Origin: Escherichia coli
GTDB lineage: Bacteria; Pseudomonadota; Gammaproteobacteria; Enterobacterales; Enterobacteriaceae
Strand: one strand, 5' to 3'
Length of the DNA: 64,000 nucleotides
Assembly (NCBI RefSeq): GCF_029227855.1
Contig: NZ_CP074356.1
In this document: piece by piece, positions 2,514-32,360 of the stretch
Layout: each line of letters opens with the position of its first letter
Numbering within the stretch: the first letter of the stretch is position 1
Translations under genes and position numbers: made by a program
Notes under the pieces: model-generated
What the model saw: the letters and a program-made list of their open reading frames with translations, nothing else
What the model was told of the DNA's origin: nothing
Databases searched by the model: none

Positions 2514-5500
2514 GTGTTCAGATTACCAACACCCCGACTACTCAGCGGACTCAAATCAGCCCTACGCCCGGCGATGCCCCGGTTTAAAGTCTCCGCTTTC
2601 TGGCTGCTGATACTGGCGTGGATTTTTCTGCTGGTATGGATCTGGTGGAAAGGCCCGACGTGGACGCTGTATGAAGAACAGTGGCTCAAACCACTGGCGA
2701 ACCGCTGGCTGGCAACGGCGGCATGGGGGATTATCGCCCTAGTGTGGCTTACCGTCCGGGTGATGAAGCGCCTGCAACAGCTTGAAAAAATGCAAAAGCA
2801 GCAGCGCGAGGAGGCCATTGATCCGCTCAGTGTGGAGCTGAACGCCCAGCAGCGTTACCTTGACCGCTGGCTGCTGCGCCTGCAACGCCATCTCGACAAC
2901 CGCCGTTTCCTGTGGCAGTTGCCGTGGTATATGGTCATCGGCCCGGCGGGCAGTGGCAAAACGACACTGCTGCGCGAGGGTTTTCCGTCCGACATTATTT
3001 ATGCCCCGGAGGGCGCACGCGGCGCAGAACAACGCCTGTACCTCACGCCCCATGTCGGTAAACAGGCGGTGATCTTTGATATCGACGGCACACTCTGCGC
3101 TCCCGCTGATGCGGATATCCTGCATCGCCGTCTGTGGGAACATGCCCTCGGCTGGCTGAAAGAAAAGCGCGCGCGCCAGTCGCTGAACGGGATTATTCTG
3201 ACACTCGATTTACCCGATCTGCTTACCGCAGACAAACGCCGCCGCGAACATCTGTTACAGACGCTGCGCAGCCGCTTGCAGGATATACGCCAGCATCTTC
3301 ACTGCCAGTTACCGGTTTACGTGGTACTCACCCGGCTTGATTTATTGCAGGGTTTTGCCGCCCTGTTCCAGTCACTGAACAGACAGGATCGCGATGCAAT
3401 TCTAGGGGTCACGTTCACCCGCCGCGCCCATGAAAATGATGACTGGCGAACAGAGTTGAATGCTTTCTGGCAGACATGGGTGGATCGAATGAACCTAGCG
3501 TTGCCGGATCTGATGGTCGCTCAGACTCACACCCGCGCGTCTTTATTTAGTTTTTCCCGCCAGATGCAGGGAAGCCGTGAACCACTGGTGTCACTGCTTG
3601 AGGGTCTGCTTGACGGCGAAAATATGAACGTGATGCTGCGTGGCGTCTATCTCACCTCTTCGCTTCAGCGCGGACAGATGGATGATATTTTCACCCAGTC
3701 TGCCGCCCGCCAATACCGGCTGGGCAATAACCCACTGGCGTCCTGGCCTCTGGTGGACACCGCACCCTATTTCACCCGTAGCATGTTCCCGCAGGCGTTA
3801 CTCGCAGAGCCTAATCTGGCAACGGAGAGCCGCGCCTGGCTGATGCGTTCCCGTCGCCGCCTGACGGTTTTCTCTGCCACTGGCGGCGTGGCGGCACTGC
3901 TGCTCATCACCGGCTGGCATCACTATTACAATGGTAACTATCAGTCCGGCATCACCGTGCTTAAGCAGGCCAAAGCCTTTATGGATGTGCCGCCTCCGCA
4001 GGGGGAAGATGACTATGGCAACCTGCAACTGCCGCTGCTGAACCCGGTACGCGATGCCACTCTGGCCTACGGTGACTGGGGCGACCGCAGCCGCCTTGCG
4101 GAGATGGGATTATATCAGGGGCGACGCATCGGGCCTTATGTGGAACGGACCTACCTGCAACTGCTGGAGCAACGCTATCTTCCGTCGCTGTTTAACGGGC
4201 TGGTCAAAGAGATGAACGCCGCGCCACCGGAGAGTGAGGAAAAACTCGCCGTGCTGCGCGTGATGCGAATGCTGGAGGATAAGAGCGGACGTAACAATGA
4301 GGTGGTGAAGCAGTATATGGCAAAACGCTGGAGCGAAAAGTTCCACGGCCAGCGCGATATCCAGGCGCAACAGATGTCCCATCTTGACTACGCGCTGGCT
4401 CACACAGACTGGCATGCAGAGCGTCAGGCGGGCGACGGTGACGCTATCAGCCGCTGGACGCCGTATGACAAGCCCGTTGTGTCAGCACAGAAAGAACTAA
4501 GCAAACTACCTGTCTACCAGCGAGTTTACCAGAGCCTGAAAACGCGGGCGCTGGGCGTTCTTCCTGCCGACCTCAATCTGCGTGACCAGGTAGGGCCAAC
4601 CTTTGACCAGGTGTTTACATCTGCCGATGACAATAAACTGGTTGTTCCACAGTTTCTTACCCGTTACGGCCTGCAAAGCTATTTTGTAAAACAGCGCGAT
4701 GAACTGGTTGAACTGACGGCGATGGATTCCTGGGTACTCAACCTCACCCGCAGCGTGAAATACAGTGACGCCGACCGGGCGGAAATCCAGCGCCAGTTGA
4801 CCGAGCAGTATATCAGCGACTACACCGCCACCTGGCGGGCCGGGATGGACAATCTGAATATCCGCAATTTTGAGTCCATCGGACAACTGACCGGGGCGCT
4901 GGAGCAGGTTATCAGCGGTGACCAGCCTTTGCAGCGGGCGCTGACCGTGCTGCGTGACAACACACAACCAGGCGCCTTTTCTGAAAAGCTATCTGCTAAA
5001 GAACGGGATGAGGCCCTGGCTGAACCAGACTACCAGTTACTCACCCGCCTTGGGCATGAGTTCGCCCCGGAAAACAGTACCCTGACAGTCCAGAAAGATA
5101 AAGAAAGCACGATGCAGGCCGTGTACCTGCAGCTCACCGAGTTACACCGCTACCTGCTGGCGATCCAGAACGCGCCTGTACCTGGGAAATCGGCACTGAA
5201 AGCCGTGCAGTTACGGCTTGATCAGAACAGCAGCGATCCCATATTCGCCACCCGCCAGATGGCAAAAACACTGCCTGCTCCGCTCAACCGCTGGGCAGGC
5301 AGGCTGGCTGACCAGGCCTGGCATGTGGTGATGGTGGAAGCCGTTCACTATATGGAAGTGGACTGGCGCGACAGCGTGGTGAAACCGTTTAACGAGCAAC
5401 TGGCAAATAACTATCCGTTTAATCCACATTCTGCACAGGATGCCTCACTGGATGCCTTCGAACGATTCTTTAAACCAGATGGCATACTGGATACCTTCTA

Positions 5501-7424: not shown

Positions 7425-7907
7425 ATGGCAAATATGAGTTATTTATCTTTGAGTGGAGAGACACAAGGGCTGATTTCAGCAGGTTGCTCAACGCTTGATT
7501 CTGTCGGAAACAAAGCACAGCCAGAACATAAAGATCAGATCATGGTTTATGCGTTAATGCATTCCATCTCAAGAAGTCAAAATGTCAATCATCATGAATT
7601 AATTATCACCAAACCGGTTGATAAATCCTCACCATTGCTGGCAAAAGCACTTAGTGACAATGAAAAAATGGTAACATGTGAATTTATACTCTACCGAACC
7701 AGTAAAGCGGGTATTTACCAGCCTTATTATAAAATAAACCTGTCAAAAGCCCGAATATCAAGTATTGATTTTGTCACACCGCATGCTGTCCTGGAAAAAG
7801 AACTGGAGCCACAGGAGAGAATTGCCTTTATTTATGAAGATATTTCCTGGGAGCATACGTTAGCCGGTACGAATGCAATGAGTAAATGGCAGGATCGTGT
7901 ACAGTAA
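7425..7907 (+). CDS. hcp: Hcp (TssD) T6SS tube protein, 160 aa
   Basis: AGGAG RBS upstream; 160 aa; Hcp-like segments KSSPLLAKAL and ERIAFIYEDISWEH; no C-terminal extension; lower GC than upstream T6SS genes. Confidence 0.8.
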   Translation: MANMSYLSLSGETQGLISAGCSTLDSVGNKAQPEHKDQIMVYALMHSISRSQNVNHHELIITKPVDKSSPLLAKALSDNEKMVTCEFILYRTSKAGIYQPYYKINLSKARISSIDFVTPHAVLEKELEPQERIAFIYEDISWEHTLAGTNAMSKWQDRVQ

Positions 7908-7950: not shown

Positions 7951-8865
7951 ATGGCTGGTTTAAGGAATAATAACAACACACAGAATGCACAGTGGGCTGA
8001 TTATGTGGGTGACATTCTTCGGGGGGCTCAACCGATAAACCAGCTAGTACCTCAGCACCCTTATCTTAACGACGTCCCACTCATTGATGAATTAAGGCGT
8101 CAGAACACTCATCATGTTATTCTCTTGACACTTGATGTTGCAAAAAAAATACTCAACTCAATAACATCATTTGATTACATTCATTTTATCACTACACATC
8201 CTTCAGGTATAAAAGATACACTCGCTTGGTTAGTTAACGCGGGTAAATTAATGACTGAGTTTGATGGAAATGGGAAAATTATATTTAACTTTAATACCTT
8301 AAAGTATACAAAAGCAAGTTACTTTGAAATACTTGGAGAGAAATATATAAAAATTACAACATCCAGCCCCTGGCTTTTAGAAAAGCTCGGTAAATATATT
8401 TTCTCTTCACGAGCGCCTCAAGTTCTGGAACTCGCTATTGGCTGGCGAGGAGCTTTATCTGAATCAATAAAAGGAGTTAAGTTCTGTATCTGGTTTTCAG
8501 TAGCCTGGAGAACCATAGAATTTATTATGAGTTCAGAGCGAGATCTGGTTAATTTTCTTGGTGATTTTTCAATGGATGTGGCCAAAGCAGTGATTGCAGG
8601 CGGTGTTGCAACTGCTATTGGAAGCCTGGCTTCTTTTGCCTGTCTTAGTTTTGGCCTTCCAGTAATTCTTGTAGGAGGAGCAATTTTACTTACAGGGATA
8701 GTGTGTACAGTTGTTTTAAATGAAATCGATGCTCAATACCATTTATCAGAAAAATTAAAAGATGCAATTAGAGATGGACTAAAACGGCAACAGGAACTTG
8801 ATAAATGGAAAAGGGAAAACATGACTCCATTTATGTATGTTCTTAACACTCCTCCCGTGATATGA
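7951..8865 (+). CDS. hypothetical protein, 304 aa, C-terminal Gly/Ala-rich hydrophobic helical hairpin; candidate T6SS cargo effector
   Basis: ATG 7951 with GGAGAG 5 nt upstream; ~220-aa polar N-terminal region, then two hydrophobic helices (AVIAGGVATAIGSLASFA and GLPVILVGGAILLTGIVCTVVL) and a charged tail; AT-rich; 43 nt downstream of hcp. Confidence 0.55.
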   Translation: MAGLRNNNNTQNAQWADYVGDILRGAQPINQLVPQHPYLNDVPLIDELRRQNTHHVILLTLDVAKKILNSITSFDYIHFITTHPSGIKDTLAWLVNAGKLMTEFDGNGKIIFNFNTLKYTKASYFEILGEKYIKITTSSPWLLEKLGKYIFSSRAPQVLELAIGWRGALSESIKGVKFCIWFSVAWRTIEFIMSSERDLVNFLGDFSMDVAKAVIAGGVATAIGSLASFACLSFGLPVILVGGAILLTGIVCTVVLNEIDAQYHLSEKLKDAIRDGLKRQQELDKWKRENMTPFMYVLNTPPVI

Positions 8866-8874
8866 GGATTAACT

Positions 8875-9129
8875 ATGCGTTTACATGTTAAATTGAAAGA
8901 GTTTTTTTCGATGTTTTTTATAGCCATATTATTTTTCCCTGCATTCAATGCTTCTTTATTTTTTACCGGAATTAAACCTCTATATTCAATAATAAAAGGC
9001 TCCACGGAAATATTTTATGATTGGAGAATGTTGATTCTATGCTTCGGTTTCATATCGTTTTCCTTGTTAAATATTCATGTAATTTTACTAACAATAATAA
9101 AATCATTCTTAATAAAAAAACAAAGGTAA
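8875..9129 (+). CDS. small membrane protein, 84 aa, two predicted TM helices; candidate immunity protein
   Basis: ATG 8875 with GAGGA 6 nt upstream, 9 nt after previous stop; very hydrophobic product; ends just after an A7 run at 9114-9120. Confidence 0.4.
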   Translation: MRLHVKLKEFFSMFFIAILFFPAFNASLFFTGIKPLYSIIKGSTEIFYDWRMLILCFGFISFSLLNIHVILLTIIKSFLIKKQR

Positions 9130-9341
9130 TCAATTTCGCCACAGACATAACAATACAGCTAACTCTTATATTTTTACTAATAGCTATCGTAATAGCACCT
9201 TTAATAGCTCCTTTTGTCACAGGATATGTCAATGCTAATTATCACCCCTGCGGTAATAACACGGGGATTTTCCCAGGAGCAATCTATATTAAAAATGGCA
9301 TAAAATGTAATAATGAACATATTTCTCGCAAGGAAGATTAA
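9021..9341 (+). CDS. hypothetical small membrane ORF (frame 0); possibly the 3' part of a frameshifted gene with 8875..9129
   Basis: Overlaps previous ORF in another frame; one hydrophobic helix LTLIFLLIAIVIAPLIAPFV; no convincing own RBS; frames would join with one extra A at 9114-9120. Confidence 0.2.
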   Translation: MENVDSMLRFHIVFLVKYSCNFTNNNKIILNKKTKVINFATDITIQLTLIFLLIAIVIAPLIAPFVTGYVNANYHPCGNNTGIFPGAIYIKNGIKCNNEHISRKED

Positions 9342-9454
9342 GCAGTTAAATAATTAAATATTCTAAAACAAACAGTTTTTAACGCCGGATTCCATGTCCT
9401 TTCTTGCACTGTCTTTGTCAGGAACAATTTCTTATGCAAAGAATTTTGTATTAT

Positions 9455-9477
9455 TGCCGCCAGAAATTCCTGGCGGC
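9455..9477. terminator. hairpin between convergent cargo ORFs and yafT
   Basis: GCCGCCAG-aaattc-CTGGCGGC inverted repeat flanked by AT-rich sequence. Confidence 0.4.
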
Positions 9478-9489
9478 AGATATAATTTA

Positions 9490-15015: not shown

Positions 15016-15034
15016 CAAATCAGATAATAAATAT

Positions 15035-15058
15035 CCTCCGGCATAGCCGGAGGTTTTT
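15035..15058 (+). terminator. rho-independent terminator of mltD
   Basis: CCTCCGGC-ata-GCCGGAGG stem followed by TTTTT. Confidence 0.75.
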
Positions 15059-15061
15059 CAA

Positions 15062-15742
15062 ATGCGCCTATAAGGCTCTCTTACCAGCCGCGCCCTAACA
15101 GGCGCACACGATCTGACATTTGCATCCAACTTCGTTACTTACGGCCCGTAAACGGGCTGCCCGGATAGGGAATCGATAACTGCTCTCCCATTTTATCCTC
15201 TTCAAGCTGGTGCTTTATGTAATCCTGTATCTTCGCCGTGTTCTTACCCACTGTATCGACGTAGTACCCTCTGCACCAGAACTCCCTGTTCCTGTATTTG
15301 AATTTCAAATCACCAAACTGCTCGTAAAGCATCAGACTGCTTTTCCCTTTCAGATATCCCATAAACCCGGATACGCTCATTTTGGGCGGGATCTCCACAA
15401 GCATATGGATATGATCTGCACAGCATTCAGCTTCCAGAATCCGTACGCTTTTCCACTCACACAGCTTTCTCAAAATACTGCCTATTGCTCTACGCTTCTC
15501 TCTGTAGAACACCTGTCTTCGGTATTTTGGCGCAAAAACTATGTGATATTTACAGTTCCATCGGGTGTGCGCTAAGCTCTTTTCGTTCCCCATTGGGACC
15601 CCCTTTTGATTTCTTGTTTGACACTTGCAGTTGCCAGACCGCAAAGTGTTTTAACAAATCAAAAGGGGTTTTAATAACTGGCTCAAAGCTGAAAGCTTTC
15701 CGGAACCCCCAGCCTAGCTGGGGGTTTTCTGTGCACAATGAA
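15062..15742 (-). mobile_element. IS200-family insertion sequence (IS200/IS605 family), boundaries approximate (+/-30 bp)
   Basis: Single 152-aa Y1 transposase ORF; perfect palindrome AACCCCCAGC-cta-GCTGGGGGTT at 15704-15727; 5' UTR inverted repeat 15596-15672 pairing with the SD; ~0.7 kb extra DNA between convergent mltD and yafE. Confidence 0.65.
15135..15593 (-). CDS. tnpA: IS200-family transposase TnpA (HUH Y1 transposase), 152 aa
   Basis: MGNEKSLAHTRWNCKYHIVFAPKYRR...HIHMLVEIPPK... with HUH motif; start at internal ATG 15593 with GGGGG SD. Confidence 0.85.
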   Translation of the reverse strand: MGNEKSLAHTRWNCKYHIVFAPKYRRQVFYREKRRAIGSILRKLCEWKSVRILEAECCADHIHMLVEIPPKMSVSGFMGYLKGKSSLMLYEQFGDLKFKYRNREFWCRGYYVDTVGKNTAKIQDYIKHQLEEDKMGEQLSIPYPGSPFTGRK

Positions 15743-19878: not shown

Positions 19879-22783
<2,905 letters not shown>

Positions 22784-22966
22784 TCACAACCCGAAGATGT
22801 TTCTTTCGATTCATCATCGTGTTGCGAAAATTTGAGAGACTCACGAACAACTTTCGTTGTTCAGTGTTTCAATTTTCAGCTTGATCCAGATTTTTAAAGA
22901 GCAAAACTTCGCAGTGAACCTTTGCAGGTACACTCTGAAGTATTTTTTATTTAATCACTACAGAGA

Positions 22967-23042
22967 TGGTGGAGCTATGCGGGATCGAACCGCAGACCTC
23001 CTGCGTGCAAAGCAGGCGCTCTCCCAGCTGAGCTATAGCCCC
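22967..23042 (-). tRNA. alaV: tRNA-Ala(UGC), spacer tRNA
   Basis: Reverse complement of GGGGCTATAGCTCAGCTGGGAGAGCGCCTGCTTTGCACGCAGGAGGTCTGCGGTTCGATCCCGCATAGCTCCACCA. Confidence 0.95.
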
Positions 23043-23084
23043 ATAACATGTAGTTAAAACCTCTTCAAATTTGCGGTGCAAATT

Positions 23085-23161
<77 letters not shown>

Positions 23162-23229
23162 GTAGAGGTTTTACTGCTCATTTTCATCAGACAATCTGTG
23201 TGAGCACTGCAAAGAACGCTTCTTTAAGG

Positions 23230-31536: not shown

Positions 31537-32360
31537 ATGGATAAACCAAAGGCGCATTGCCGCCTGCTTCTCCCCTGCTTTTTTTCCTTTCGGCCTGTAC
31601 CGTAGATATCAGCCAGCCGGACTCATCAGCCACAGCGGTAGATGCCGGGGCGAAAACATGGGCAGTCAAATTCCAGCATCAAAGCTCTTTTACCGAACAA
31701 TCAATAAAAGAAATAACGGAACCTGATCTCAAACCCGGCGATTTGCTGTTCTCCTCAAGCCTTGGGGTAACCTCATTTGGAATCCGCGTCTTCAGCACTT
31801 CCTCTGTGAGTCACGTTGCAATCTATCTGGGTGAAAATAACGTTGCAGAAGCGACAGGCGCTGGCGTCCAGATTGTTTCCCTCAAAAAAGCGATGAAGCA
31901 TAGCGATAAGCTTTTCGTCTTACGAGTCCCGGATCTTACCCCGCAACAAGCCACAGAAATCACCGCATTCGCCAACAAAATTAAAGATAGCGGTTACAAC
32001 TATCGCGGCATTGTCGAATTTATTCCCTTTATGGTGACTCGCCAGATGTGCTCACTGAATCCGTTCTCCGAGGATTTTCGTCAACAGTGCGTCAGCGGCC
32101 TGGCGAAAGCGCAGTTAAGCAGTGTGGGCGAAGGAGACAAAAAGTCGTGGTTTTGTTCGGAATTTGTCACTGATGCATTTGCCAAAGCCGGGCATCCGCT
32201 TACACTGGCGCAATCGGGCTGGATTAGCCCTGCCGATCTGATGCATATGCGTATTGGTGATGTCTCTGCGTTTAAGCCAGAAACGCAGTTACAGTATGTT
32301 GGGCACCTGAAGCCTGGGATTTATATCAAGGCGGGTCGCTTTGTTGGGCTGACTCAGTGA
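31537..32360 (+). pseudogene. yaeF: YaeF NlpC/P60-family lipoprotein gene, apparently frameshifted in T7 run 31579-31585 (or sequencing error)
   Basis: ATG 31537 encodes MDKPKAHCRLLLPCFF then hits a stop; body of protein continues in frame 0 from TTG 31557; one extra T would restore a 274-aa lipoprotein with lipobox FLSAC. Confidence 0.55.

Follow-up and report, generated by a model that had tools for sequence, protein, structure and literature searches.

A frameshifted allele of ykfM, a predicted T6SS immunity gene, in an Escherichia coli genome

Two reading frames overlapping at an A7 tract

Two small open reading frames overlap at a run of A's in the window, by which we mean the whole stretch of 64,000 nucleotides of Escherichia coli DNA that was analyzed. 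The arrangement raises the question of whether they are two genes, one gene broken by mutation, or one gene broken only in the assembly. The first frame (8875..9129, plus strand, ATG start, 84 aa) ends with ...LIKKQR and a TAA at 9127–9129, right after a homopolymer at 9114–9120 that consists of exactly seven A's, with T9113 and C9121 on either side. An earlier reading of this DNA, made from the letters only and referred to here as the sequence-only reading, had reported these coordinates, and all of them were verified. The second frame (9021..9341, plus strand, TTG start, 106 aa) lies in the -1 frame and continues for 73 codons beyond the A7 tract. When one A was inserted in the tract, translation of the reconstruction gave a single ORF of 155 aa with three hydrophobic segments (residues 13–31, 53–71, and 97–115), which is the fused three-helix protein of about 155 aa that the same reading had proposed.

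The start codon at 8875 is preceded by GAGG 7 nt upstream. For the downstream frame, the sequence-only reading had seen no convincing start or RBS, and we came to the same view. The mechanically defined ORF begins at TTG 9021, upstream of which a search for an RBS found nothing, and the start used by gene callers, ATG 9039 (giving a 100-aa product), has just a weak GGAG 12 nt upstream. Numbered on the reconstructed protein, the upstream half (8875..9129, plus strand) contains native residues 1–82 with TM1 and TM2, followed by Gln-Arg and the stop. The downstream half (9120..9341, plus strand, -1 frame) contains native residues 83–155 with TM3 and a conserved C-terminal YHPC...G...Y.K...C domain, and its stop is at 9339–9341. 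The tract itself (9114..9120, plus strand), which is A8 in the intact alleles of the lineage, falls in the codons for Ile80(ATA)-Lys81-Lys82-Thr83, in the TM2–TM3 cytoplasmic loop. The gene is AT-rich, with a GC content of 29.6% as compared with 51% for the whole window.

We compared the region with 5,426 complete E. coli genomes by megablast. It was present in about 3,000 of them, where it is annotated as ykfM. A chance overlap of two ORFs was ruled out, as about 3,000 complete genomes have one uninterrupted ykfM at this place. In the closest alleles, intact ykfM has 468 nt and encodes 155 aa (WP_001236629.1), and in K-12 it has 480 nt and encodes 159 aa. A homologue search with the fused frame, which the sequence-only reading had put forward as a check, returned an exact match to WP_001236629.1, the product of one intact gene in close relatives. 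The reconstructed protein thus matches WP_001236629.1 over its full length at 100% identity, and its identity to the 159-aa form of the K-12 type is 92%. At the nucleotide level, the window copy (8875..9341, plus strand) and the intact gene for WP_001236629.1 are 99.8% identical and differ by one gap, and there is 100% identity to loci that PGAP, the annotation pipeline of NCBI, labels 'ykfM, frameshifted', the label given to genomes that are identical to the window at ykfM. The position is also that of ykfM, between tme (a yafU remnant in K-12) and yafT-aspV-dnaQ. Only the reading frame departs from the family, being interrupted in the window copy by the A7 tract and the stop at 9127–9129. 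It is therefore near certain that the two ORFs are the halves of ykfM, split by the loss of one base from a homopolymer.

The K-12 ykfM is the same gene and occupies the same locus, with the 92% identity to the reconstructed protein given above, but it differs from the window copy in having ATC before the run and a C-terminus that is 4 residues longer. The K-12 tract codons are ATC AAA AAA ACG, that is, an in-frame A7 with C on both sides. The YkfM family proper was found in Escherichia and Shigella only. Public annotation and the supplementary table of one paper already contain ykfM, the frameshifted allele, and the role predicted for the gene, and the identification as such carries little weight as a discovery.

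An A7 tract could in principle be decoded on purpose, by -1 ribosomal frameshifting or transcriptional slippage that yields full-length YkfM, or the two frames could encode two independent small proteins. The sequence A_AAA_AAA at 9114–9120 is indeed a slippery heptamer in phase with the ORF that starts at 8875, which resembles dnaX-type -1 frameshifting, where the slippery heptamer is likewise A-rich and in phase with the frame upstream, and the weak GGAG before ATG 9039 would suit a separate downstream protein. Unlike the dnaX-type system, however, ykfM has neither a stimulatory hairpin (the 70 nt downstream of the tract fold at -3.5 kcal/mol, z = 0.2) nor a Shine-Dalgarno-like element upstream of the tract. 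The layout in two frames is not conserved either, as most genomes, E. albertii, and the Salmonella homologues have a single frame. Programmed -1 frameshifting was rejected on these three grounds, and we consider purposeful decoding of the tract, in whichever form, extremely improbable. Low-level slippage at A7 may occur, but it would not be a designed feature.

Some other ykfM loci were noted in passing. In the K-12 strain C600 (L003, 2534–3655), an intact 159-aa ykfM has as neighbors what remains of the C-terminal part of tme and a fragment of an ISAs1 transposase, and is in effect an orphan immunity gene left by the loss of the T6SS island. Strain TUM1886 (L014) has another ykfM frameshift, caused by an additional A at the equivalent of window position 9290, and its tssA has a deletion of 1 nt; the two lesions reflect either errors of the assembly or continued decay at this locus. 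In public drafts, 'partial' YkfM fragments, dozens of them distinct, are located where contigs of ~10 kb and ~30 kb end, indicating that short-read assemblies often break inside ykfM, for which low coverage and tract heterogeneity are candidate causes.

The predicted function of ykfM and of the upstream gene

The gene order around ykfM is tssH, vasI, tssA, tssM, vasL, hcp, a 304-aa gene that we refer to as tme, and ykfM, followed by the convergent yafT, tRNA-Asp, and dnaQ, so that ykfM forms the distal end of a T6SS cluster. The hcp gene (7425..7907, plus strand; annotated Hcp family T6SS effector, PF05638) ends 43 nt upstream of tme (7951..8865, plus strand), and tme and ykfM are on the same strand with a gap of 9 nt (8865 to 8875). 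Between the convergent ykfM and yafT there is a terminator-like hairpin (9454..9479, plus strand) with a 10-bp stem and 7 GC pairs, which was recognized by its match to the consensus only.

Fridman et al. 2020 (PMC7046647) defined the Tme membrane-disrupting T6SS effectors and their Tmi immunity proteins, which are DUF1240 or DUF1240-like, and validated the pairs Tme1/Tmi1 and Tme2/Tmi2 of Vibrio parahaemolyticus. Supplementary Data 5 of that paper lists WP_000908071.1 as a Tme (domain 122–277, E = 1.3e-37), with an Hcp at 43 bp on the upstream side and the 155-aa protein WP_001236629.1 at 9 bp on the downstream side, so that the E. coli pair appears there as a predicted Tme effector and a predicted Tmi immunity protein. 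The Phobius topology given there for WP_001236629.1 is i12-32o52-75i96-119o, that is, three helices.

The 304-aa protein of the window is intact and differs from WP_000908071.1 by one residue. It contains the Tme motif, with DVAK (DxxK) at residues 209–212, hydrophobic helices at 214–232 and 238–256, and then ...NEID, and on this evidence it is a predicted membrane-disrupting T6SS effector. Its linkage to T6SS is that of a Tme, since its gene is located where the tssA-tssM-vasL cluster ends, with hcp 43 nt upstream. As to ykfM, Tmi genes lie at most 50 bp downstream of the Tme gene on the same strand and encode three to six TM helices. The 9-nt distance falls within this limit, and the reconstructed protein has three helices, of which the 84-aa fragment keeps two.

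The sequence of YkfM itself gave less direct evidence. No Pfam match was found for it at E ≤ 1, and no Pfam or NCBIfam model matched either the reconstructed YkfM or the 304-aa Tme. We therefore looked at homologues of the neighborhood. Homologues of tme are found in Salmonella (63% identity) and Rahnella (39%) and adjoin hcp in both. In each case a gene for a membrane protein of 149–160 aa lies 1–2 nt downstream, for which the best Pfam model is DUF1240, just below the threshold (23.6, 20.4, and 11.2 bits for the syntenic Rahnella and Salmonella genes against DUF1240, PF06836, with a cut-off of 24.3). YkfM can be aligned with these homologues through intermediates at 67%, 50%, 25%, and 20% identity, and BLASTP of YkfM against the Rahnella protein gave E = 5e-5. 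The invariant residues of the alignment are M1, F20, and F30, together with Y123, C126, G131, Y138, K140, and C145; the latter six are all in the C-terminal tail and all past the frameshift. A profile built from YkfM orthologues alone and searched against 1.8 billion representatives retrieved few proteins, and its full-length distant matches best fitted DUF1240, at 16.5–23.8 bits against the same cut-off of 24.3.

Taken as sequence evidence, these results suggest that YkfM is the predicted cognate immunity protein (Tmi, DUF1240-like) of the upstream effector, because its gene lies 9 nt downstream of tme, which itself follows hcp. The conservation of the order hcp, tme, and small DUF1240-like membrane gene in Salmonella and Rahnella supports this reading. 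The pair resembles the Tme/Tmi family in that the upstream protein has the DxxK, TM-helix, and D motif, ykfM stands in the Tmi position and would encode three TM helices, and the homologues of YkfM best match DUF1240 in Pfam. It is unlike the family in that YkfM itself is below every Pfam threshold, and in that the window has a broken immunity gene next to an intact effector gene. The guess of the sequence-only reading that the fused product would be an immunity protein for a pore-forming toxin agrees with the bioinformatic assignment in PMC7046647, in which it is the predicted Tmi 9 bp downstream of a Tme. A literature search on the E. coli Tme/Tmi pair and on immunity for the aspV T6SS found no experimental study. 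In a Salmonella enterica locus (L042, 6001–9010), two DUF1240-like genes encoding 149 and 151 aa, separated by a 169-aa gene, occupy the interval from the tme homologue to yafT and may form an immunity-gene array.

Frequency and recurrence of the A7 allele in E. coli

The number of A7 genomes was determined from the exact-match ranks of longer queries. The results showed that 36 complete genomes are 100% identical to the window over 8875–9341 and that a 37th has A7 plus one SNP, giving at least 37 A7 genomes; the next roughly 260 genomes in the ranking differ from the window ykfM solely by A8. The complete genomes with A7 come from unrelated laboratories and from humans, dogs, cattle, gulls, swans, rivers, and cheese. 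At the protein level, exact matches to the 100-aa product that A7 gives from ATG 9039 were found in 1,960 collection blocks, short-read drafts and metagenomes among them, and the exact 84-aa product was found in 27 contigs. The intact 155-aa protein was found in 10,553 collection blocks and at least 1,000 contigs. The A7 allele is thus real and recurrent in natural E. coli. In the K-12-type alleles (C-A7-C), an A has been lost in 1 of about 1,540 genomes.

The A7 tract was found on several flanking haplotypes, some of which are otherwise identical to those of A8 genomes (L016 and FDAARGOS_1276; L019 and strain 1190). On a neighbor-joining tree of 26 loci, constructed from 15 kb with the tract masked, at least six changes of tract length are required, a count that is indicative and not exact because recombination has occurred in the region, where some SNP pairs are present in all four combinations. 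A7 is thus not a single event. There is a second A8 tract in tme (8142..8149, plus strand), which is in frame in the window; strain 1190 has A9 at this tract and a tme annotated as frameshifted, and L019 has A10. The tme gene of L018 has a different lesion, a 1-nt deletion at 8349.

Strain 746 (L044), which has A7, retains the complete set of T6SS core genes along with two hcp genes, vgrG, and tme, all annotated as intact; apart from ykfM, a frameshift is present in an Rhs gene only. These genes are likewise annotated as intact in other genomes with a frameshifted ykfM (L008–L011). Natural strains with an apparently intact T6SS and tme and yet a broken predicted immunity gene present a small puzzle as to the need for YkfM in self-protection. 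The options by which A7 strains would tolerate the lesion are a silent system, a working split protein, rescue by slippage, or a dispensable YkfM.

The recurrence of A7 bears on one further explanation, namely adaptive phase variation, in which the A8 tracts of ykfM (tmi) and tme would be reversible contingency switches of immunity and effector expression. If this were true, subpopulations would be vulnerable to, or disarmed from, T6SS attack by kin, and it would be explained why successful global lineages have an intact T6SS and tme but a frameshifted immunity gene. The tract resembles the contingency loci of Neisseria, Haemophilus, and Campylobacter in being a coding homopolymer whose length varies in close relatives (A7, A8, and A9) and thereby switches the frame. 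The variation among near-identical haplotypes, with the six or more changes on the tree, the occurrence of lengths 7, 8, and 9 within one sublineage and of A9 and A10 in tme, and the retention of an apparently intact T6SS and tme in A7 strains are all consistent with this. Unlike in those loci, however, the ykfM tract is short, and eight A's are few for the phase-variable contingency class. The K-12-type C-A7-C alleles are shifted in just the single case among about 1,540 noted above. The frequency of A7 largely fits clonal spread, ordinary slippage, and recombination, in line with the incompatibilities between SNPs, and some of the length variants are possibly sequencing errors. Nothing in the data points to switching within a culture or to an advantage of the OFF state. 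The data are accounted for by ordinary slippage in an accessory gene that is decaying, and we regard adaptive phase variation as very unlikely.

As a recurrent indel hotspot, the A8 tract of ykfM can be expected to give rise again to split ORFs and to pseudogene or 'highly mutated' calls in variant screens. A QMS-seq study (PMC11742677) found ykfM to be the most mutated gene under three antibiotics and suggested that it encodes a porin. The calls are single-nucleotide G>T changes that occur in clusters and in virtually all samples, a pattern that resembles an artefact of mapping or of the reference more than it does selection. As these are not tract indels, we dropped this report as evidence on the tract.

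The A7 tract in the window genome

The nearest complete genome is that of JNEC-KY178 (AP045174), which has A8 at ykfM. Over the 64 kb, 17 substitutions separate it from the window, of which 11 fall in the rRNA operon, and the indels number exactly two, A8 to A7 in ykfM and T8 to T7 in yaeF. The 11 substitutions (window 21555–23219) cluster in the 23S gene and the spacer, as expected of differences between operon copies or of gene conversion. The sequence-only reading had pointed to the same type of one-base homopolymer loss in yaeF, and the comparison bears this out, as yaeF (about 31537–32360) has T7 at 31578–31584, T8 in JNEC-KY178, and its frame is broken near the 5' end. Among 5,423 complete E. 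coli genomes, not one had the yaeF T7 allele. Thus, 2 of the 7 homopolymers of length 8 differ between the two genomes, whereas none of the 60 runs of 6–7 bases does.

The window and JNEC-KY178 have in common the SNPs 3783A, 5866C, 6421C, 8853T, 10237C, and 13409A, which are present in no other sampled A7 genome. The frameshifted pseudogenes annotated by PGAP in CFSAN061763, 746, MS14384, SCU-109, and C1 have the same 467-nt sequence including A7, but they are on another flanking haplotype, without the SNPs of the window and JNEC-KY178 at 8853, 10237, and 13409. On the basis of these flanking SNPs, we rejected descent of the window A7 from the common A7 clade, and it follows that the window A7 either arose independently or is an assembly error. 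We identified additional members of the sublineage by a YafT variant that is specific to it, and found five short-read assemblies with A8, one with A9, and none with A7. The comparison of run lengths in related strains, suggested by the sequence-only reading, hence gave A8 in JNEC-KY178 and in the five short-read assemblies, from which it follows that the window A7 has no second assembly in its support. Within its sublineage, A7 is private to the window genome. A private TssM variant of the window (L to Q at 4372) was absent from protein records when searched with three alternative starts.

The possibility exists that ykfM is intact, with A8, in the DNA of the strain, and that its lost A and the lost T of yaeF are both homopolymer undercalls of long-read sequencing. 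The window assembly is probably a long-read or finished one, since the window spans a whole rRNA operon. Both indels in the 64 kb are contractions from 8 to 7 that affect 2 of its 7 longest homopolymers, with all 60 runs of 6–7 bases unaltered, and such paired homopolymer contractions are a pattern typical of long-read undercalling. The uniqueness of the yaeF T7 to the window among complete genomes points in the same direction, as do the sublineage members with a readable tract, all of which have A8 or A9 and never A7, and the lack of an independent assembly with A7. On the other hand, five of the seven 8-mers are intact, including the A8 of tme just 970 nt away, and the same contraction is demonstrably real and common in other strains, so that a real event needs no special pleading. 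We judge the probability of an assembly artefact to be substantial, if somewhat short of even.

A genuine mutation is favored by the fact that the identical contraction at the ykfM tract is real and common elsewhere, and a recent slippage event is plausible because this tract mutates often. Against it is the ratio of two indels to about six non-rRNA substitutions, which is high for natural divergence. Roughly weighting both indels together, we find recent slippage at ykfM and a homopolymer error of the assembly to be about as likely as each other, and we would give an even chance to A7 being a genuine mutation of the window genome. The sequence-only reading had named a sequencing artefact, pseudogenisation, and phase variation as the options. 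This was the right set, and the allele proved to be real in nature; the choice has been narrowed without being settled for the window genome.

If the mutation is genuine, the course of events at the tract may have been as follows. Intact YkfM is a predicted inner-membrane protein of 155 aa with three helices, its N-terminus inside, its C-terminus in the periplasm, and a conserved C-terminal domain with two cysteines. In the lineage of the window, a synonymous Ile codon, ATA in place of ATC, makes the tract an A8, from which replication slippage would then have deleted one A. Translation would meet a stop two codons past the lesion and produce an 84-aa fragment without TM3 and the conserved periplasmic domain, and the outcome would be a pseudogene allele with loss of function. 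Loss of YkfM function is the expected consequence of the frameshift because TM3 and the conserved two-cysteine periplasmic domain are removed.

The private pair of 8-to-7 contractions in ykfM and yaeF is also a warning that homopolymer lengths in this assembly may be unreliable throughout the genome. A minor feature that the window shares with JNEC-KY178 is an IS200C element at 15031–15737 (tnpA at 15136–15594, minus strand), located between mltD and a SAM-methyltransferase gene. At this site, FDAARGOS_1276 and L020 also contain an IS200, with ~30 SNPs relative to the IS200C copy.
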